Assembly: GCA_965249525.1 (NCBI GenBank) | Contig: OZ252237.1 | Coordinates: 1,156,443-1,220,442 of the forward strand | DNA from: a bacterium | Lineage (GTDB): Bacteria; SAR324; JACQKK01 | Direction of reading: 5' to 3' | Length of the DNA stretch: 64,000 bases | Part shown: piece by piece, positions 5,732 to 35,446 of the stretch | Layout: each line of letters starts with the position of its first letter | Numbering within the stretch: position 1 is the stretch's first letter | The notes under the pieces: generated by a model | What the model saw: the letters and a program-made list of their open reading frames with translations, nothing else | The model's database searches: none | Told to the model about the DNA's origin: nothing | Made by a program: the position numbers and the translations under genes

Positions 5732-8365
5732 ATGAGAACCAAAGGAACCAAGCTGTTGAAGCTGTTGAAATCGCGGTTATTGGTGCAAGTTGTCCTAGGA
5801 TTGGGCGGCTTGGCATTGCTGTCTTTGCTGTGGTTAAACATCTCTTTGCCCTCCATCAGCACTTTGGAGGACCCCGAATTCAGTCTGCCCACCATCATCT
5901 ATGACCGCCACGGCAATCGTGTGGACGAGTTGTACATCAAAAGGCGTAAATTGGTGCAGTATCAAGAGCTGCCCAGCCACCTGATCAATGCCTTGCTAGC
6001 CAAAGAAGATGCCCGCTTTACCGAACACCACGGTATTGATCCTATCCGCATCATGAAGGCCGCTTGGATTAACCTGCTGGCACTAGATACCTTGCAGGGT
6101 GCCAGTACCTTAACCCAGCAGACGGCGCGTCAGTTCTTTTTGACTCTGGAGAAAACCTGGCTGCGAAAAGTACGCGAGATACTGCTGGCACTAAAGATAG
6201 AGCGTCAGTTTAGCAAGTCGCAGATTATTACCCTTTATCTCAACAAGGTCAATTTTGGGGATGCCTGGGGGGTGTCTGCAGCAGCGGAGCATTATTTTGA
6301 CAAAGAGGTGCAGGATCTTTCCTTAGAGGAAGCAGCCACCTTGGTGGGACTGCTTCCTGCGCCTAATCGTTACAAGCCCACACGCAATCCGCATTTGGCT
6401 TTGCAGCAGCGGAATATTGTGCTCAAACGCATGGAGGAAGAGAAAGCCATCAGCCAGTTGGAGTATTTGTCTGCTGTGGGGCGTCCCTTGACGCTTTCAC
6501 TGCAGGGGAGGCCAGATTCAAGGGCTGCGGCATACTATGTGGAACTGGTAAGGCGACAGCTGCAAGAAAAATTTGGCTCCAAGAAACTGTACGAGGGAGG
6601 GCTGCATATATACACCGCTATGTCCTTAAACTTTCAGCAGGCAGCGCATGCGGCCTTGCTAAAAGGAATAACAAGTCTAACGCTGCGACAAGGATACCGC
6701 CCCCCAGAAGCATTGGCACCATTGAACGCTGAGGGCAAACCCCGCAAAGAGCTGCTAGCGAGTTTGAATCCCCTGCTGTCTTCTCCCAATCCCCAACAAC
6801 GGCTGGGGAATTTGAAAGCCAATGATATCCTGCACGCAGTGGTGGTAAAGGTAAACAGCCGTCAAGCCACCTTGCAGCTGTCACCCCGTCAACAAGGTCT
6901 GCTGTTACTCAGCGACGCTCGGCAGCTTTGGAAGGCTGTGCTGCGCTACCCTAAACCCAAATATAAGATGCAGCAAAGGGCATTTTTCAATCTCACCCAA
7001 GCTCTCCAGCCAGGCAGCATCATTCAGGTAACCCCCTTGAATGCCAGGCAAGGCGAACTGCAGCGCTTTCAACTGCACCAAGAACCCTTGAGCAATGGAG
7101 GCCTGTACGCAGCCAATCCACACACTGGAGAAGTATTGGCTATGGTAGGGGGCATTCGCTTTGGCCGCTCCCAGGGAGAAAGCGAATTCATTCGCGCCAC
7201 CCAAGCAGAAAGACAACCAGGTTCCGCCTTTAAACCCATCATCTACGCAGCTGCCCTAGATGAAGGCTTCAACCCTGCTACCATCCTGGATGACAGCCCC
7301 CGCACCTTCGTACTCCAAACTGGAAAAAAACACACCCCCAACAACTATGACCAACGCTTCTTAGGAAATATCAGCTTCCGCAACTCCCTGGTACGCAGCC
7401 GCAATGTACCCACCGTCCAGCTGGTACATTCTCTGGGGGCTACACGCATCATTGAATACGCCAAGAATTTAGGCATCTCTACCTACATCCCCAATGAAGG
7501 ACTCATCGCACTGGGAACACACTCGGTCAAATTATCCGAACTCACCCGCGCCTACGGAGTCTTTGCTACGGGAGGACAACTCGCCCAACCCATCTACATC
7601 CTGCGGGTAGAAGACAGCAACGGCAATATCCTGCTGGAAAACACCCCCCAAAAACAAGAAGTCATGTCACCTGACACCGCCTACCTCATCACCGATATCC
7701 TGCGCGATGTCGTCCGCAGACCCGGGGGTACCGCTTATGGAGTCATGCATTCCATTAAGCATCCCGCAGCAGGCAAAACCGGCACCACCCAAGATTATAC
7801 CGATGCCTGGTACATAGGCTTCCTTCCCCAACTCACCGCAGGCATCTATGTGGGAATTGATGATCAACGCAAATCCCTTGGACCCTATGAAACAGGCTCG
7901 CGCACAGCCGCCCCCATCTGGAGAGACTTCGTCAACACCATCTCTCCCCGACTAACCCTCCAATCCTTCCACCAACCCAACTCCGTAGTGGCACACCGCG
8001 TAGGAAAAGACGGACAAATACTTTCAAGCTGCCAAACACAAGAAGGCGGACGCTACGAACTATTTAAGCGAGACTCCGTCCCCCACGGAATCAGAGACAG
8101 CAATTGCGGCAATGTCTTCACCCAAAACATCGCAGCCCCCCTCAACGACTTCAACCAACAAGACCCAGAAACCTCCGCAAGCCTAGACCCCGCCCCCCTG
8201 GAAGACTTTGACATCCCTGCGGATGAAATCACCAGCACCGAGATCGAGCTAGAAGACCTGCCAGAAGACCTGCCCGCAGACCTGCCCGCAGACCTGCCCG
8301 CAGACCTGCCCGCAGACCTGCCGCAAGAAAAAGTATTTAGTACAGAAGAAGATTTTGAACTCTAG
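5732..8365 (+). CDS. mrcA: Class A penicillin-binding protein (PBP1A: glycosyltransferase + transpeptidase)
   Basis: 877 aa, GGGAGG SD. GT51 motifs EDARFTEHHGID and GASTLTQQ. Transpeptidase motifs SAFKP, SRN and KTGT. Acidic C-terminal tail with (DLPA) repeats. Confidence 0.9.
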   Translation: MRTKGTKLLKLLKSRLLVQVVLGLGGLALLSLLWLNISLPSISTLEDPEFSLPTIIYDRHGNRVDELYIKRRKLVQYQELPSHLINALLAKEDARFTEHHGIDPIRIMKAAWINLLALDTLQGASTLTQQTARQFFLTLEKTWLRKVREILLALKIERQFSKSQIITLYLNKVNFGDAWGVSAAAEHYFDKEVQDLSLEEAATLVGLLPAPNRYKPTRNPHLALQQRNIVLKRMEEEKAISQLEYLSAVGRPLTLSLQGRPDSRAAAYYVELVRRQLQEKFGSKKLYEGGLHIYTAMSLNFQQAAHAALLKGITSLTLRQGYRPPEALAPLNAEGKPRKELLASLNPLLSSPNPQQRLGNLKANDILHAVVVKVNSRQATLQLSPRQQGLLLLSDARQLWKAVLRYPKPKYKMQQRAFFNLTQALQPGSIIQVTPLNARQGELQRFQLHQEPLSNGGLYAANPHTGEVLAMVGGIRFGRSQGESEFIRATQAERQPGSAFKPIIYAAALDEGFNPATILDDSPRTFVLQTGKKHTPNNYDQRFLGNISFRNSLVRSRNVPTVQLVHSLGATRIIEYAKNLGISTYIPNEGLIALGTHSVKLSELTRAYGVFATGGQLAQPIYILRVEDSNGNILLENTPQKQEVMSPDTAYLITDILRDVVRRPGGTAYGVMHSIKHPAAGKTGTTQDYTDAWYIGFLPQLTAGIYVGIDDQRKSLGPYETGSRTAAPIWRDFVNTISPRLTLQSFHQPNSVVAHRVGKDGQILSSCQTQEGGRYELFKRDSVPHGIRDSNCGNVFTQNIAAPLNDFNQQDPETSASLDPAPLEDFDIPADEITSTEIELEDLPEDLPADLPADLPADLPADLPQEKVFSTEEDFEL
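8255..8326. repeat. 12-bp tandem repeat x6 (GACCTGCCCGCA) in the PBP C-terminal tail
   Basis: Direct reading. In frame, encoding (DLPA)n. Confidence 0.9.
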
Positions 8366-8448
8366 CAGGCCCGCCAATTAGGAAACATCGCCTCGGCGCA
8401 GCTGCTGGGGGGGCTTTATTTAGGCGCGGCGTGGCGAGCCTCCAGGCA

Positions 8449-9093
8449 CTAACAGCTGATGCATAAAAGAGAATGCATCCCGTTACAAGAAGATGCTGAG
8501 CCGCCACCTATTCTATTGACATCGTCACTTCCACTCAGACCAGCAGCTCCAATGCTAGCTGTGGTGGACCAATTAGTGCAGGTAAAGCTAACAGCCTCTC
8601 TTGTAAGACCTGTCCAGTAAGACTGAGAGGAGGCACTATCTGTAACCGCATGCATTACTGTGGGGTTTTCATTAACCTCATAGAATTGCTGATAGCTGTC
8701 GGCAATTATGGTGGTGTCATCAGGGCGGTAGACCTTGCGGGTATCATCATCTTTTATAATCATATCGGGAGTAAATGCATCGTCTGCTATCACTGCCTGG
8801 TGGGTATAGCCCACGCTGTCGGCATGGGGCAGCACACTAGAATCGCTGTCCCCTTCCCTCTGGCATACGGCATCAGCAGCAGCTACTCCACTCAAGTCTC
8901 CCACACTGAAATCTCCGTCAGAGGTCGCAACGCTAACCCATAGATAAATCCTTTGGGGTGCAGGCAGGGTGGGCGTACCACCACCGCCTCCGCCGCCTCC
9001 GCAGGAGGCAAGCAGGCTGCCCAGCAGCATCACTGCCAGTCCGCTTGTCGGCAGCAGCTTCCAAGCTGTTTTGGTTGAAAGTTGAGAAAACAT
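8449..9093 (-). CDS. Secreted lipoprotein of the YLWVS...YRPDD...YWTG...LLC(V/I)S family (DUF1554-like); paralogue of the 32.2-35.0 kb genes
   Basis: ATG at 9093 with AAGGAG 7 nt upstream (the track ORF runs to 9195). Lipobox LLASC followed by a Gly run. Shared motifs IYLWVSVATS, AADAVCQREG, GYTHQAVI, VYRPDDTT, YWTGL, CTNWS, LLCISC. The family name is from memory of Pfam DUF1554 and was not searched. Confidence 0.7.
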   Translation of the reverse strand: MFSQLSTKTAWKLLPTSGLAVMLLGSLLASCGGGGGGGGTPTLPAPQRIYLWVSVATSDGDFSVGDLSGVAAADAVCQREGDSDSSVLPHADSVGYTHQAVIADDAFTPDMIIKDDDTRKVYRPDDTTIIADSYQQFYEVNENPTVMHAVTDSASSQSYWTGLTREAVSFTCTNWSTTASIGAAGLSGSDDVNRIGGGSASSCNGMHSLLCISC

Positions 9094-30051: not shown

Positions 30052-30936
30052 ATGCACCCCTCCCGCCTCCCACAACAACTGGTAGCCTGGCTGGAAAACC
30101 TCCAGCGAAGCAAAATGCGCTACCTCAGCGGTATTCAACCCCTGTCTGCACTCCCTGTCCCCACAACTCCGCAGCCCACACCGCAGCCCACACCACAGCC
30201 CACACCACAGCCCACACCGCAGCCCACACCACAGCCCACACCACAGCCCACACCACAGCCCACACCACAGCCCACGGCACAGCCCACACCGCAGCCCCCT
30301 GCCACACCCCCCATGACCAACCATCCCAGCTTCCAAGACTCCCTGCTGTTCCATCACAGCCAAGCCGAAAAAATCGCCGCCCAAACCCATACCCTGGAAG
30401 ACCTCCACACCGCCTTTGCCACCTGCACCCGCTGCCGATTGGCGCAAAACCGCATCCAACTAGTCTTCGGCTGCGGCAACCCGCATCCAGGCATCGTCTT
30501 CATCGGTGAAGGTCCAGGGGCAGAAGAAGACCAACAAGGACTCCCCTTCGTGGGAGCCGCAGGACGCCTGCTCACCGACCTCATCTCCGCTATGGGATTA
30601 ACCCGCCAGGATGTCTATATCGCTAATATCGTTAAATGCCGACCCCCAAGCAATCGCAACCCCCAGCCCGATGAAATCCAAGCCTGCATGCCCATCCTCA
30701 ACCACCAACTCCAATTGCTCAACCCCAAACTCATGGTGACACTAGGTGCTGTGCCCCTCAATGCTCTGATACCCAACTCCCCAGGCATTACCCACGCCCG
30801 CGGACACCTGACCCAGTACCGACAATGGCCGCTGCTGCCCACCTACCACCCCTCCTACCTGCTGCGAAAACCCTCAGCACTGGACGAATGCTGGCAGGAT
30901 TTTCACCAGGCCCTCAAACAGGTCTATGCCAGTTAG
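30052..30936 (+). CDS. Family-4 uracil-DNA glycosylase with an N-terminal (PQPT)n extension
   Basis: GNPHPGIVFIGEGPGAEEDQQGLPFVGAAGRLL...IANIVKCRPPSNRNP...HPSYLLR. Start taken at the ATG just after the purA stop. Confidence 0.85.
   Translation: MHPSRLPQQLVAWLENLQRSKMRYLSGIQPLSALPVPTTPQPTPQPTPQPTPQPTPQPTPQPTPQPTPQPTPQPTAQPTPQPPATPPMTNHPSFQDSLLFHHSQAEKIAAQTHTLEDLHTAFATCTRCRLAQNRIQLVFGCGNPHPGIVFIGEGPGAEEDQQGLPFVGAAGRLLTDLISAMGLTRQDVYIANIVKCRPPSNRNPQPDEIQACMPILNHQLQLLNPKLMVTLGAVPLNALIPNSPGITHARGHLTQYRQWPLLPTYHPSYLLRKPSALDECWQDFHQALKQVYAS
30169..30297. repeat. 12-bp tandem repeat x~11 (CCRCAGCCCACA) in the UDG N-terminal extension
   Basis: Direct reading. In frame, encoding (PQPT)n. Confidence 0.9.
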
Positions 30937-30983
30937 ACCTGCTGCTGATGCTGAGTCTCTCCCATAAGCTCAGCCCATCCAAG

Positions 30984-31020
30984 CTGCCCCCTAGAACACT
31001 GCCCCCTAGAACACTGCCCA
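30984..31020. repeat. 15-bp tandem repeat x2.4 (CTGCCCCCTAGAACA)
   Basis: Direct reading. Confidence 0.8.
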
Positions 31021-31054
31021 CAAAGCTCTTGCTTTAAATATCTCCTTAAACGGT

Positions 31055-31083
31055 TTGACAAATCGGGGTTGTGTCGTTAAGGT
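31055..31083 (+). promoter_or_regulatory. Sigma-70-like promoter candidate (TTGACA-17 nt-TAAGGT)
   Basis: Perfect -35 at 31055-31060, a 17-nt spacer, and a TAnnnT -10 at 31078-31083. It faces the ORF-poor region. Sequence match only. Confidence 0.3.
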
Positions 31084-31089
31084 AAGTTA

Positions 31090-31802
31090 TGCCAGCAGGT
31101 TCCTCCCCGTTTGGGGCATGAATTGTGTGTCACCAGGCCAGTGAAGCTCATATGGTTTGCGTGATCTCTGTGATGCGTTAGGGTTGCTTGGGTAACCATA
31201 GCAGCCATAACGTCACCTGGGATATGGTAAGTGAATTATTATCATGTTCTATGTGGTTGATGTCTTGGACGGCTGTGGGTTCATAAGTGAGGAACACTGC
31301 CTGTCGGCATGGGCGTTGGTTAACAGCCAGGCATGCCCTGCAGCTATGGACGCATAGCAGGAGGTATTGCAGCGCCGGTGATGGACAGACAGAGGGTGTT
31401 TGCACCCACCATGTGGATGGGGGTTGAAGGGATTTGGGAGTCTGCCGAGGACTAGATAGAGTCAATGGCAGACAGCACGGACTGTAGCTGATCTTGTTTC
31501 TTCTGCAAACAGAGAGACACAGGTGACAGACAGCCAACTGCCTAAGGCAGGGCTGATGATGGCCTCTTGGGCAGACCGCGGCGGACAGCGGTTGCAGCTT
31601 GGCTGCGTACTTGCTGGCTGTGCGGTTAATGCAATTCCTGCTGAGGTGAACAATCGGCAGGTTCAGCAATGGGAGTCGGAGGCTGCGTCATGCCGCAAGA
31701 TACTTCCAAATCAATATCCACAGCGTCACAGGTGTGGAATGAATGACGCCCGCGAAAACTGAGGCTTATAGGCTGCGCCAGAAAGTTTTTCCTTTAATAT
31801 CC
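31090..31802 (+). ncRNA. Candidate large structured non-coding RNA (unclassified)
   Basis: ~0.7 kb with no credible ORF, average GC, downstream of the promoter-like element. Many local hairpins: 31344-31359 GCTATG-GACG-CATAGC; 31440-31472 GTCTGCC/GGCAGAC; 31393-31406 GGGTG-TTTG-CACCC; 31685-31749 GCGTCAT/ATGACGC enclosing CCACA/TGTGG. No known RNA family was recognised by eye. Confidence 0.25.
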
Positions 31803-31916
31803 GTTGTTCCCTAAACGGAATGAGTCAGCCTGCTGCTGAGAAAAAACAGCACAAGTCAAGCAGTATCCCACACCCTGGCAACCCCCCTTCAACCCCCATC
31901 CATCCACATTTTTTAA

Positions 31917-32090
31917 AACATTGATAAATTTTCTGTGAGGAGGAGATAAGCAGTTTTTTTGGAACATTGATAAATTTTCTGCGAGGAGGAGATAAGCAGT
32001 TCTAAAAAGTTCTAAAAAGTTCTAAAAAAAGCTGCAACTCTGCTGTAAGGAAGAGGCAAGCAGTTCTAAAAAATTCTAAAAAATATTGTG
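31917..32090. repeat. Composite repeat: 46-bp unit x2 (AACATTGATAAATTTTCTGYGAGGAGGAGATAAGCAG...), GTTCTAAAAA x3, and a further core copy
   Basis: Core CTGYGAGGAGGAGATAAGCAG at 31933 and 31979; a variant at 32043. Confidence 0.85.
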
Positions 32091-32183
32091 CTGTACAGCG
32101 ATGGCTGATAGGATTCTGATTATAGCTTTTTATGGTGCGCTGCCACAAAAAGCATTTTTAGAATACACAAGCGGAGTATCGCT

Positions 32184-32922
32184 ATGTTTGCTCAATTCCC
32201 AACCAAAACAGCTTGGAGGCTGCTGCTGGCAGGCGGACTGGCAGTGATGCTGCTGGGTGCCTTGCTTGCCTCCTGCGGCGGGGGTGGTGGAGGCGGCGGC
32301 GGAGAATGATGGTACTCCCATTGCCGACAATGGTGGGACCGACCCCATGCCCGACCCCATCGTCCTGATTCCATCCACAAAGATTTATCTATGGGTTAGC
32401 GTTGCGACCTCTAACGGAAATTTCAGTGTGGGAGATTTCAGTGAGGGAGATTTGAGTGGAGTAGCTGCTGCCCATGCCGTATGCCAGAGGGAAGGGAACG
32501 GCGAGCGCAGTGTCCTGCCCAACACCGATAGCGTGGAATATACCCACCAGGCAGTGATAGGAAGCAAAGACCCTGTAACTCTCAATATCACTTTTCATCC
32601 CAGCACCATTATAGCAACTGGTGATACCCGTGGTGTCTACCGCCCTGACGACAGCACCAAAATTGCCAACAGCTATGCGAATTTTATTAGTGATCCTGAT
32701 GTTTTGGCGGCTGTGGCTTCAGGTTCTGCGAAGAGATACTGGACAGGTCTTGGAGACATGGGAAATATTGGCGACACCTGTCTTAGTTGGAGCTCTTCCT
32801 CTTCTTCAAACAATGGAATTCGTGGTAGAAGTAACAAACTTGCCTTCAACAGAATAGGCGGCTCCACCAACAAATCTTCTTGTAATAACTCGACTTTCCA
32901 TCTTTTATGTGTCAGCCATTAG
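32184..32922 (+). pseudogene. DUF1554-like lipoprotein paralogue, frameshifted just after the lipobox
   Basis: GGAG-N7-ATG 32184 gives [41 protein letters not shown], stopping at 32307-32309. The mature domain ([12 protein letters not shown]...IYLWVSVATS...YRPDDST...YWTG...LLCVSH) continues in the +1 frame to 32922. A G5 run (32280-32284) and an extra A relative to the next paralogue (GAGAATGAT vs GAGATGAT) lie between the two frames. Confidence 0.6.
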
Positions 32923-32996
32923 TGCCTGGAGACCGCCGCAACCCCTATTTCAACCTCCCAAAAAGCATTTTTAGAATACACAAGCGGAGTATCGCT

Positions 32997-33843
32997 ATGT
33001 TTGCTCAATTCCCAACCAAAACAGCTTGGAGGCTGCTGCTGGCAGGCGGACTGGCAGTGATGCTGCTGGGTGCCTTGCTTGCCTCCTGCGGAGGTGGCGG
33101 AGGCGGCGGCGGAGATGATGGTACTCCCATTGCCGACAATGGTGGGACCAACGCCCATGCCTGACACGCCCGACCCCATGCCCGACCCCATGCCCGACAC
33201 CATGCCTGACACCACGCCCGACACCACGCCCGACCCCACGCCCGACCCCACGCCCGACCCCACGCCCGACCCCACGCCCGACACCACGCCCGACCCGCCT
33301 CCGCCGCCACCCCCACCCCCACCTACAAGGGCTTATCTGTGGGTTAGTGCTGCGGACTCTACGCCAGAGAATACCGCTACGACCCTTAAAGGAGATTTTG
33401 GTGGTACAGTTGCTGCCGATGTCGTATGCAGGGGGCGGGCAAGCGGTGCTGGACTGCCCGCTGCTGCTGCTGGCTATACGCACAAGGCAGTGGTAGCAAC
33501 CAATTCATTTAATCCCAGTAACATTCCAGTAAATAATTCCCATAAGGTCTACCGCCCTGACGACAGCACCAAAATTGCCAACAGCTATGCAGACTTTTTT
33601 AATGCTTCTATATCTGTAACCAACTCGGTGGCAAGTACAAGTGGTAAATACTGGACAGGTATTGATGTTGATGATGGTGCTTTTAAGATTTCGGAGAGTA
33701 ATTGCACCGATTGGAGTTCCGATACTGCTAGTAGTAGCTTCGGCGATCCTCGCCAAAAAGATCATAAAAGATTAGGGGAACCAAGCGTCTTCTTATCATG
33801 TACTAGGGCACGCCCTCTGTTATGTGTCAGCTATCAGCCTTAA
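32997..33843 (+). pseudogene. DUF1554-like lipoprotein paralogue with (PDPT)n linker, frameshifted after the lipobox
   Basis: It has the same leader and signal peptide as 32184. The first frame stops at 33162-33164 (...DNGGTNAHA*). The mature part (PMPDTPDP...[10 protein letters not shown]...VYRPDDST...YWTG...LLCVSYQP) lies in another frame, shifted near the CCC at 33154-33156. Confidence 0.6.
33169..33300. repeat. 12-bp tandem repeat x11 (CCCGACMCCAYG) encoding the Pro/Asp/Thr linker
   Basis: Direct reading. In frame with the mature-domain frame. Confidence 0.9.
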
Positions 33844-33960
33844 ATGAGTCAGCCTGCTGCTGGGAAAAACCAGCACAAGTCAAGTAGATGCCACACCCTG
33901 GCAATCCTCTTCAACCCTCATCCATCCACACCATATTTTTTTAGAAGCTTGAGAAATTTC

Positions 33961-34130
33961 CTTTAAGGAAGAGGCAAGCAGTTTTTTTGGAACATTGATA
34001 AATTTCCTGTGAGGAAGAGATAAGCAGTTTTTTTGGAACATTGATAAATTTCCTGTAAGGAGGAGATAAGCAGTTCTAAAAAAAGCAGTTCTAAAAAAAG
34101 CAGTTCTAAAAAAGCAGTTCTAAAAAAATA
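33961..34130. repeat. Composite repeat: 46-bp unit x3 (cores at 33961, 34007, 34053) followed by AGCAGTTCTAAAAAA x4
   Basis: Direct reading. Same unit family as 31917-32090. Confidence 0.85.
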
Positions 34131-34259
34131 TCCTTTTATAAGGAGATAAGTAGCTAAAAATATTGCGCCTTATAGTGCTGACGGGTATGATCTTGTTGCT
34201 AGTTTTTTATGGCACTCTGCCACAAAAGATACTTTTACAAAACACCTGGGGATGTCGCT

Positions 34260-34949
34260 ATGCGCTTTCAATTTCAAATTGGTTCTATACTTTCTTATAA
34301 ACTTGCGTCTCTTAAGACAGCTTTGGTTCTGCTGCTGGCAGTGATGCTGTTGGGCGCCTTGCTTGCCTCCTGTAAAGACAAGGGTCGCAGCAAGAAGGGA
34401 GGATCTGCCAGCTCCGACAGTGAAGATGCTTCCGAAGCCACTACCCTGGATGATTCTGATAAGATTTATCTGTGGCTTAGCAGTGCGAGATCTGGCGGAG
34501 CTTTGGGCGGCGCAGCTGGTGCCCATACCGTATGCCAGGGGGAAGGGAACGGCGAGGACAGTGTCCTGCCCAATACCGATACCGTGGGCTATACCCACCA
34601 GGCAGTGATAGGAGACAGTTTATTTAATCCGGGTGATATTATAGAAGATGGAGATGAGCGTGGGGTCTACCGCCCTGACGACAGCACCCAAATTGCCAAC
34701 AGCTATGCGGACTTCTTTGATGTGTTGGGTGTCGATGCACTGGCTACGGTGGCAGACGGCTCTAATAAATTTTACTGGACAGGTCTTGAGAGTGAGATGG
34801 TTTCCTCAAGCACCTGTTCTAATTGGACCACATCCGACGGCAGTATACGTGGATCTATTGGTTCAAGTGGAGTAGTCAGCTTCTCCAGATTAGGCAACTC
34901 CGAGGTATTTTGTTCCTCGCAGTTGCATCTTTTATGTGTCAGCCATTAG
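34260..34949 (+). CDS. DUF1554-like secreted lipoprotein paralogue (intact)
   Basis: The internal ATG of the track ORF gives MRFQFQIGSILSYKLASLKTALVLLLAVMLLGALLASC (lipobox). Family motifs IYLWLSSARS, AHTVCQGEG, GYTHQAVI, VYRPDDST, YWTGL, CSNWT, LLCVSH. Confidence 0.75.
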   Translation: MRFQFQIGSILSYKLASLKTALVLLLAVMLLGALLASCKDKGRSKKGGSASSDSEDASEATTLDDSDKIYLWLSSARSGGALGGAAGAHTVCQGEGNGEDSVLPNTDTVGYTHQAVIGDSLFNPGDIIEDGDERGVYRPDDSTQIANSYADFFDVLGVDALATVADGSNKFYWTGLESEMVSSSTCSNWTTSDGSIRGSIGSSGVVSFSRLGNSEVFCSSQLHLLCVSH

Positions 34950-35062
34950 TGCCTGCAGGCCGCGCACGCCGCCGCTGCTGCCAAATAAAGCCCCGCCCAG
35001 TAATGCGGTTCTAAAAAAAGCTGCAACTCTGCTGTGAGGAAGGGGTAAGCCGTTCTAAAAAA

Positions 35063-35446
35063 TTAGTCGCGCTGGATGAGTTCAATGGCGTGACCATCAG
35101 GATCGCGCACAAAGGCAATTACCGAACCGCCGAATTTCATAGGACCTGGCTTGCGATAGACATCCGCACCTGCTGCCTCCATGCGCTGGCACATGCCGTG
35201 GATGTCTTTTACTCCTACAGCTAGGTGTCCCCAGGAGTCGCCGTCGGCATAGTCGCTGGCTTGATCCCAGTTATAGGTCAATTCTATTTCTGCCTGCTGG
35301 GGTGAGGCTTCATAGCCCACAAAGGTGAGGGTGAAGCGTCCATTGGGGAATTCTTTTTGCCTCAGTACTTTCATATTCAGTTGTTTGGTATAAAAGGCGA
35401 TGGCTTTATCTTGGTCGCGTACGCGGATCATGGTGTGCAAGTACAT
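35063..35446 (-). CDS. gloA: Lactoylglutathione lyase (glyoxalase I)
   Basis: 127 aa. MYLHTMIRVRDQDKAIAFYTKQL...ELTYNWD...GHLAVGV...FVRDPDGHAIELI. Confidence 0.9.
   Translation of the reverse strand: MYLHTMIRVRDQDKAIAFYTKQLNMKVLRQKEFPNGRFTLTFVGYEASPQQAEIELTYNWDQASDYADGDSWGHLAVGVKDIHGMCQRMEAAGADVYRKPGPMKFGGSVIAFVRDPDGHAIELIQRD

Follow-up and report, generated by a model that had tools for sequence, protein, structure and literature searches.

In Neisseria, phase variation acts through CTCTT repeats in opa and poly-G tracts in hpuA and pilC, which lie within the export signal or directly behind it, and the vsp, vlp and vpma genes of Mycoplasma form variable surface lipoprotein families with conserved 5' cassettes. 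Here we describe a cluster of three paralogous lipoprotein genes (genes 1 to 3) with the DUF1554 domain (PF07588), found together with a fourth, separate member (gene 4) in a 64,000-nucleotide stretch of DNA from an uncultivated SAR324 bacterium (G000:C1:1156443-1220442; hereafter the window, whose numbering is used unless a position is given as that of the genome). In genes 1 and 2, the signal peptide and the mature domain lie in different reading frames. On balance, we consider these breaks to be real, recent loss-of-function alleles in an indel-prone linker, which would have arisen by ordinary inactivation, one of them having been spread by gene conversion.

The genes have the same Pfam domain and the same endostatin-like fold as the Len proteins of Leptospira (LenA-LenF; PMC2063517), which are likewise small lipoproteins of a multi-copy paralogous family, with proline-rich linkers and a diversity made by recombination. 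The len paralogs recombine and have common 5' non-coding regions; furthermore, mutations preclude an intact LenA lipoprotein in three serovars, and lenB is without its first 19 codons in most serovars (PMC2063517). However, the sequence similarity is distant (genes 1-4 score 18-27 bits with the LenA/LenB equivalog model, NCBIfam NF047482, and do not reach its cut-off of 300 bits). The genes described here are also single-domain genes with Gly tracts after the lipobox, and their host is an uncultivated organism with a 1.7-Mb genome, not a spirochaete pathogen. They belong to the domain superfamily of Len and are not Len orthologues.

The locus resembles simple sequence repeat (SSR) phase variation of the Neisseria type in the break of frame between export signal and mature domain, and in being a multi-copy family with some members on and others off; the N-terminal bias of genic SSR phase variation has been discussed (PMC3315296). 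It differs in that no hypermutable repeat is present at the breaks, which are single-base surpluses, and in that the Gly codons are mixed. With the Mycoplasma families it shares near-invariant upstream, leader and signal peptide sequences joined to fast-diverging mature parts, tandem arrays, and gene conversion between copies. However, a site-specific recombinase, a promoter poly-A and an inversion system were not found here, no search having been aimed at recombinase genes, and a whole 1.2-kb block has been copied, with its lesion, between distant loci.

Frame breaks behind the lipobox

The source genome is one contig of 1.72 Mb (49.8% G+C, completeness estimated at 89.7%) with nine DUF1554 copies. 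The signal peptide and the domain are in one frame in six of the nine; the broken ones are gene 1, gene 2 and a copy outside the window (genome 779385-780120, minus strand; hereafter the 779-kb copy), and no break was found elsewhere in any of these three genes. A preliminary description of the window had reported the separation of signal peptide and mature domain in two genes, at different sites, as well as a set of motifs common to genes 1-4. The open reading frames (ORFs) of genes 1 and 2 and the sequence comparison bear this out, and the motifs (YLW, VCxG, YTHQAV, RPDxT, YWTG, CxxW and LLCVS) are real.

The signal-peptide frame of gene 1 (32184-32309, plus strand) encodes MFAQFPTKTAWRLLLAGGLAVMLLGALLASC followed by nine glycines and one E, and ends at TGA (32307-32309). 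The mature endostatin-like DUF1554 domain (32310-32922, plus strand; 28.9 bits with PF07588) is read in the +1 frame, which is open from 32257 to the stop at 32920-32922 without internal stops, contains KIYLWVS...LLCVSH and keeps all of the family-invariant residues. Genes 1 and 2 share a block of ~210 bp at 96% identity, comprising leader, signal peptide, Gly tract and the segment that follows. In this block gene 1 has one surplus A (GGAGAATGATGG vs GGAGATGATGG in gene 2), and the 17 nt before it and the 34 nt after it are the same in both genes; that is, after the common GGAGGCGGCGGCGGAGA, gene 1 continues with A-TGATGG and gene 2 with TGATGG. Because this is the sole difference between genes 1 and 2 that is not a multiple of three, the lesion of gene 1 can be placed at the surplus A (32305-32306, plus strand), where gene 1 has AA, the otherwise identical segment of gene 2 has one A (33114), and the domain passes to the +1 frame. 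The segment behind it shares the frame of the signal peptide in gene 2 and that of the domain in gene 1. The preliminary description gave the correct coordinates for a G5 run (32280-32284), contained in the Gly-codon run in or after which it placed the shift; by the paralog comparison, the surplus A lies 21 nt downstream of that run. In the 779-kb copy the signal peptide, Gly tract and stop are exactly those of gene 1, and so is the lesion.

In gene 2, which is the most diverged of the family members, the signal-peptide frame (32997-33164, plus strand) encodes a signal peptide identical to that of gene 1 and a tract of eight glycines, and ends with NAHA before TGA (33162-33164). The break site (33147-33161, plus strand) reads ACCAAC-G-CCCATGCC, whereas gene 1 has ACCGAC-CCCATGCC and the 779-kb copy ACCAAC-CCCACGCC. 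Gene 2 thus has one surplus base relative to both, a G at ~33153, exactly at the 3' end of the 5' block that the genes share. The shift had been expected near a CCC (33154-33156, also correctly located), and the surplus base (AAC-G-CCC) does directly precede it. The part of gene 2 read in the +1 frame (33165-33843, plus strand; the mature-domain frame being open over 33070-33843) consists of a (P-D-P-T/M)n linker of ~10 repeats of 12 nt, a Pro run and the DUF1554 domain (31.7 bits), and reads PTPMPD(TPDP)n...RAYLWVS...LLCVSYQP.

A protein database search found the close family only in this genome and in one 62.9-kb contig of a metagenome in the European Nucleotide Archive (ENA; ERZ25069801 contig_54, hereafter L012), which is syntenic with genome positions 1272622-1283748 at 88-95% DNA identity. 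L012 belongs to a different species-level lineage. At its positions 6001-8951 it has four tandem DUF1554 lipoprotein genes (A to D) vs two in our genome (G000; genome 1278676 and 1279397), and therefore the number of genes in the array rises and falls between close lineages. Two of the four (B and D) are intact. In A and C there is a break after the lipobox, the signal frame passing through the Gly tract into nonsense and the domain being intact in another frame. Relative to its intact orthologue in G000 (1278676), copy A has a net gain of 4 nt, and copy C has one of 2 nt relative to its near-identical neighbour B; both length changes lie inside the (GGN)n tract in the DNA alignment. Tract lengths differ by non-multiples of three both between paralogs and between orthologues, with assembly errors being possible in such tracts. 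The breaks of L012 are less secure than those of G000, since they are inside GGC repeats in what is probably a long-read assembly.

Taking the two genomes together, 5 of the 13 genes hold their sole lesion no more than ~65 nt past the Cys codon, and these five represent four independent events. By our own arithmetic, a uniform model gives a probability of ~7e-5 for four lesions falling within ~65 nt in genes of 650-850 nt. The breaks in L012 appear to show that the linker behind the lipobox is an indel hot spot, and linker length differs in every paralog pair of the 13-member alignment. A genome-wide lipobox scan gave ~60 plausible signals; a stop less than 60 codons from the Cys with another frame continuing was found only in the three DUF1554 genes. 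This exceeds what chance would give.

Both lesions of G000 are of the +1 type, and both lie outside homopolymers and outside repeats with periods other than multiples of three; the repeats that the genes do contain have periods of 3 and 12 nt. The Gly tracts of the 13 members are mixtures of GGA, GGC and GGT, and the longest G run is 2-3 in 11 of them, G5 being present only in gene 1 and the 779-kb copy. Thus no hypermutable repeat, the mark of SSR phase variation, was found at either lesion of G000.

Multiple lesions or loss of invariant residues, as in a decayed pseudogene, were not found in the broken copies. Each has one lesion, no stops in ~200 further codons and all 31 invariant columns of the family alignment, and departures at several near-invariant positions were seen only in gene 2. 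Therefore the inactivation would be recent, not an old decay. The mature frames have internal GTG starts (32257 in gene 1, 33070 in gene 2), from which the product would have no export signal; we rejected such a product as unlikely to be functional for a disulfide-bonded domain.

A 5' cassette shared between distant loci

The 5' part of gene 1 belongs to a cassette of 1185 bp (31167-32351, plus strand) that is 99.6% identical in a megablast comparison to genome 781125-779941, where the second copy stands before the 779-kb gene. The cassette comprises an ORF-poor upstream block, 46-nt repeats, the leader with its Shine-Dalgarno (SD) sequence, the signal peptide, the Gly tract, the lesion and the segment that follows. 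The two copies differ only at 31386-31389 (3 of ~1180 positions), 31390-32340 being 100% identical. Directly after GGTGGGACC the identity drops to ~50%, with a second conversion patch of ~90% at 32540-32680, and the mature domains of the two genes are separated by a dS of ~0.7. Because a 99.6% identical block is joined to domains with a dS of ~0.7, the lesion-bearing cassette seems to have moved recently between old paralogs. This transfer, to or from the 779-kb gene, would be a very recent gene conversion or duplication, and therefore the breaks of gene 1 and the 779-kb copy would count as one mutational event. With a transfer so recent, intact domains are expected of dead genes too.

The ORF-poor 1 kb upstream of gene 1 (31167-32183) is not unique, being part of the duplicated 1185-bp block, and a 206-bp piece of it (31702-31905) recurs at genome 484604-484804 with 77.7% identity. 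We considered whether the 1.2-kb block could be a decayed inverted DUF1554 gene, and rejected this as no tblastn match had E below 0.19. Upstream of gene 1, the arms of a perfect 18-nt inverted repeat (31414-31431 and 31885-31902) bracket 453 bp within the cassette; judged from its arrangement, the pair has the geometry of an invertible segment.

The 46-nt elements (AACATTGATAAATTT..GAGGAGGAGATAAGCAG) and GCAGTTCTAAAAA units at 31909-32075 (plus strand) recur at 33937-34130, upstream of gene 3, and at 35008-35064. There are 6-9 copies of them genome-wide, all adjoining this DUF1554 subfamily, and these tandem elements may be promoter or UP-type elements. In a sigma-70 and terminator scan of 30900-35300, sites were no more numerous than in shuffled sequence, and two predicted terminators are a small hairpin overlapping the SD sequence. 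Rfam and tRNA scans of the window gave no matches.

The cassette may also bear on gene 2. The 15-mer across the lesion of gene 2, ACCAACGCCCATGCC (33147-33161), has three occurrences in the 1.72 Mb of the genome; besides the lesion site, these are the reverse complement at 31306-31320, in the cassette, and the duplicate of this at genome 780972, whereas the chance expectation is ~0.003. One hypothesis is that the surplus G of gene 2 is a templated insertion of the quasi-palindrome-correction type, by which an imperfect match of 14/15 would have been made perfect. Against this, the arms are 1.8 kb apart, which is long for quasi-palindrome correction. A templated origin, if true, would be further evidence of a biological event behind this G.

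Origin of the breaks

The explanation that we favour, somewhat hesitantly, is that of recent inactivating alleles. The family would evolve by tandem duplication, gene conversion and diversifying selection, in the manner of variable surface binding proteins, and gene 1, gene 2 and the 779-kb copy would be its current null alleles. One surplus base in the linker, no more than 65 nt from the lipobox Cys codon, would uncouple the export signal from the domain, so that a broken copy would yield only a short lipopeptide. The lesion of gene 1 would have arisen once and been copied to or from the 779-kb gene together with the 1.2-kb 5' cassette, and that of gene 2 would be independent, at the border of the 5' block that the genes have in common. 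The lesions would gather behind the lipobox because the low-complexity linker is prone to indels and weakly constrained, and the rest of each broken gene would be undecayed because too little time has passed since the frameshift. Linker frameshifts would persist where a copy is not needed or is a disadvantage, the family being redundant and fast-evolving. Lin and Kussell found that the ratio of in-frame to out-of-frame indels is ~1:1 and that indel variability is higher at gene termini (PMC3315296). Both the recency of the lesions and the loss of export are what we infer from the sequences.

If the lesions are real, this is a surface family whose members are lost through mutations of the segment most prone to indels, with a null allele spread between distant loci by gene conversion. 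It would also mean that Len-like behaviour, including recombination, common 5' regions and knock-outs at the 5' end, occurs in a very distant, uncultivated bacterium with a small genome. For annotators, the three broken DUF1554 genes and the dxs gene of this genome are to be treated with care.

Several observations weigh against the favoured explanation. The single-copy gene dxs (G000:C1:522277-522440) is frameshifted near codon 43 (AAA-CTGGGGGAC), with A3 where A4 is expected, one more base being implied by the genus-mate genome (G001), and several G5 runs are nearby. Since dxs has one copy only, with ispG and ispH intact, this break is probably a consensus error, and the assembly is thus not error-free. 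The Flye-style name of L012 suggests that it may be a long-read assembly, and such assemblies are liable to miscalls in GGC-rich tracts. The close grouping of the breaks behind the lipobox, the 5 broken genes out of 13 and the perfect domains are also expected of a selected ON/OFF device. Furthermore, dN/dS does not separate broken from intact copies, as it is 0.5-2.35 in intact-intact, intact-broken and broken-broken pairs alike. Since intact pairs are equally high (0.9-2.35), we discarded dN/dS as an uninformative test of relaxed constraint; by these ratios the family as a whole appears to be under diversifying selection.

The first two of these points, together with a G5-vs-G6 break in an RCC1 paralog (see below), speak for an artefact of assembly or consensus, in which the true genes are in frame and the surplus bases are long-read indel errors in G+C-rich, low-complexity sequence; in addition, the breaks of L012 sit inside (GGC)n tracts, and gene 1 would likewise return to frame if the G5 at 32280-32284 were G4. 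However, when the ORFs of the genus-mate (1.599 Mb) were compared with G000 by tblastn (~1390 ORF matches, 392,000 aligned residues), only a handful of frame splits were found in G000, mostly linked to homopolymers: dxs, a gene at 80 kb of the genome (A9/C5 context), a DPPY methyltransferase and 1-2 doubtful cases. This background of ~3-5 frame breaks per Mb predicts ~0.03 in the 6.3 kb of DUF1554 genes, where three, or two independent events, are observed, and fewer than 0.01 errors in the nine 65-nt linker windows, where two independent ones are seen; therefore random error cannot explain the cluster. An error specific to the context is unlikely because the same ~50-nt context gives A in gene 2 and AA in gene 1, because the AA recurs at a second, separate locus in the 779-kb copy, and because eight other (GGN)n tracts of the genome are in frame. 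By paralog alignment neither lesion of G000 is in a homopolymer of at least 3, and through its break gene 2 gains a perfect 15-nt match to a unique sequence lying 1.8 kb upstream, a match that a random error in base calling would not produce. We therefore regard an artefact as unlikely, and the lesions of G000 as quite probably real. The preliminary description had named pseudogenisation and sequencing error as alternatives to phase variation; recent inactivation is favoured here, whereas error is improbable as a general explanation, given the low background of frame breaks.

Reversible switching without a homopolymer is a possibility that we hold doubtful, although it is not as weak as the artefact. 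Indels in the (GGN)n or (PDPT)n linkers, combined with recombination of the near-identical 5' cassettes (genes 1, 2, 4 and the 779-kb copy), would turn members on and off, and three copies would be OFF in this genome. Such a reversible flux would be of low rate, and would pass through compensating indels of the linker or through conversion between cassettes of 96-100% identity. The position of the breaks in both genomes, with every mature domain intact, is consistent with such switching, as are the diversifying selection on the family and the tract lengths of close copies, which differ by non-multiples of three. One orthologous pair even differs in state, copy A of L012 being broken and G000 1278676 intact. 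The lesions of genes 1 and 2 flank a 34-nt identical segment in 96%-identical blocks 813 bp apart, so that each gene has unbroken sequence opposite the lesion of the other, and frameshifts at the N-terminus are recognised as a simple way to achieve phase variation (PMC3315296). However, there is no hypermutable repeat at the breaks (A to AA in gene 1, a G between C's in gene 2) and the Gly codons are interrupted; therefore switching rates would be near ordinary mutation rates. Moreover, triplet and 12-nt repeats slip in frame, and intact domains are equally expected of very recent dead alleles such as the cassette differences suggest. Phase variation, to whose classic geometry the locus had been compared, is thus unsupported in its classical form. 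As an extension, the linker and the exchangeable 1.2-kb cassette might together be a repeat-independent system for switching and shuffling a repertoire of endostatin-like surface proteins, a proposal that we consider improbable. Linker indels would silence copies, one of them maybe templated by the inverted 15-mer of the cassette, and compensating indels or gene conversion of the cassette could re-activate them; this would explain why 5 of the 13 copies are broken at the same place and have perfect domains. Far less probable is programmed recoding, that is, a +1 ribosomal frameshift at GAA-UGA in gene 1 and at GCC-UGA in gene 2, or transcriptional slippage. In both genes the mature frame is +1 and UGA closes the zero-frame ORF, and a G-rich, SD-like GGCGGAG stretch stands just upstream of the UGA in gene 1, loosely recalling prfB. 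However, neither P-site codon is shift-prone (re-pairing fails for GAA to AAU and for GCC to CCU), the two sites have no common motif, and an A/T run that would allow transcriptional slippage is lacking; recoding is not needed by six paralogs, and the broken copies of L012, which have no nearby stop, would need +1 in one and -1 in the other. With sites that differ, no re-pairing and different shift directions in L012, both the prfB-type frameshift and transcriptional slippage were rejected.

Self-comparison of the genome revealed as other broken lipoprotein paralog only one RCC1 copy, plus a methyltransferase. The RCC1-type lipoprotein (G000:C1:1271800-1272860) is split at ~1272045, where it has G5 and the repeat consensus (KCWG-xNG) implies G6. 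The DNA methyltransferase with a DPPY motif (G000:C1:1026108-1026850) is frameshifted just upstream of DPPY in an A4/T4-rich context, and could be a pseudogene or phase-variable.

Protein family, fold and relatives

Genes 1-4 have scores of 28.9, 31.7, 33.0 and 28.3 bits in the hidden Markov model search with PF07588 (gathering score 27.5); they exceed this threshold only narrowly, though consistently, and the assignment to DUF1554, which had been suggested as a test of the family, holds. The alignment of the 13 members has 31 invariant columns, four Cys among them. With its profile, the endostatin 1koe was found in the PDB at E=1.6e-5, together with 1dy0 and 1bnl. An AlphaFold2 model built on the family alignment was of moderate confidence (predicted local distance difference test 67, predicted template modelling score 0.69), and its top Foldseek matches were endostatins (TM 0.53-0.58, probability 1.0), C-type lectins coming next with weak scores. 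The profile, the model, the Foldseek matches and the four invariant Cys all agree with an endostatin-like, C-type-lectin-like fold.

All of these proteins are predicted lipoproteins. By our own pattern scan and inspection, for which we required a charged n-region, a hydrophobic h-region and [LVI][ASTVI][GAS]C within ~35 residues of the start, they have lipoboxes of the signal peptidase II (SPII) type, MFAQFPTKTAWRLLLAGGLAVMLLGALLAS followed by C and relatives of it. A member would thus consist of a Sec/SPII signal, a lipobox of the form L-L/F-A/S-S-C, a flexible linker rich in Gly or in Pro and Asp, and one DUF1554 domain with two disulfides. The family most plausibly represents lipid-anchored, single-domain, endostatin-like proteins of the C-type-lectin-like domain superfamily with a binding role at the surface, as judged from the analogous Len adhesins of Leptospira (PMC2063517). 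This extends the endostatin-like lipoproteins to a lineage with eukaryote-like surface proteins (RCC1), and hints at interaction with a eukaryotic host or prey.

The intact members in the window are gene 3 (34260-34949, plus strand), which encodes 229 aa with the lipobox LLASC followed by KDKG, and gene 4 (8449-9093, minus strand), which encodes 214 aa with LLASC followed by GGGGGGGG and has a leader and signal peptide of the same type as genes 1 and 2. Orthologues of genes 1-3 were found in none of the collections searched; the metagenome scan gave relatives at 26-29% identity only, and the genome scan none. In the genus-mate and 29 further relatives, the family was absent but for two weak matches in one genome of the same order.

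Genes 1-3 stand head-to-tail between the end of a uracil-DNA glycosylase (UDG)-like gene at 30936 and the minus-strand gloA/ald, from 35063 onwards. In the genus-mate, 48.7 kb lie between the UDG-like gene and gloA (G001:C1:1156054-1204774), where here there is the 4.1-kb lipoprotein cluster (30937-35062). From this comparison, the interval appears to be a boundary of a rearrangement or of a variable region, and the cluster to be lineage-specific.

At E<=1e-3, the 13-member profile matches 15,311 representative clusters of a protein library. The DUF1554-type domain, common in metagenomes, is far wider spread than its Leptospira-centred description suggests, and some of the proteins are 2,000-3,500 aa long, with 6-13 tandem copies.

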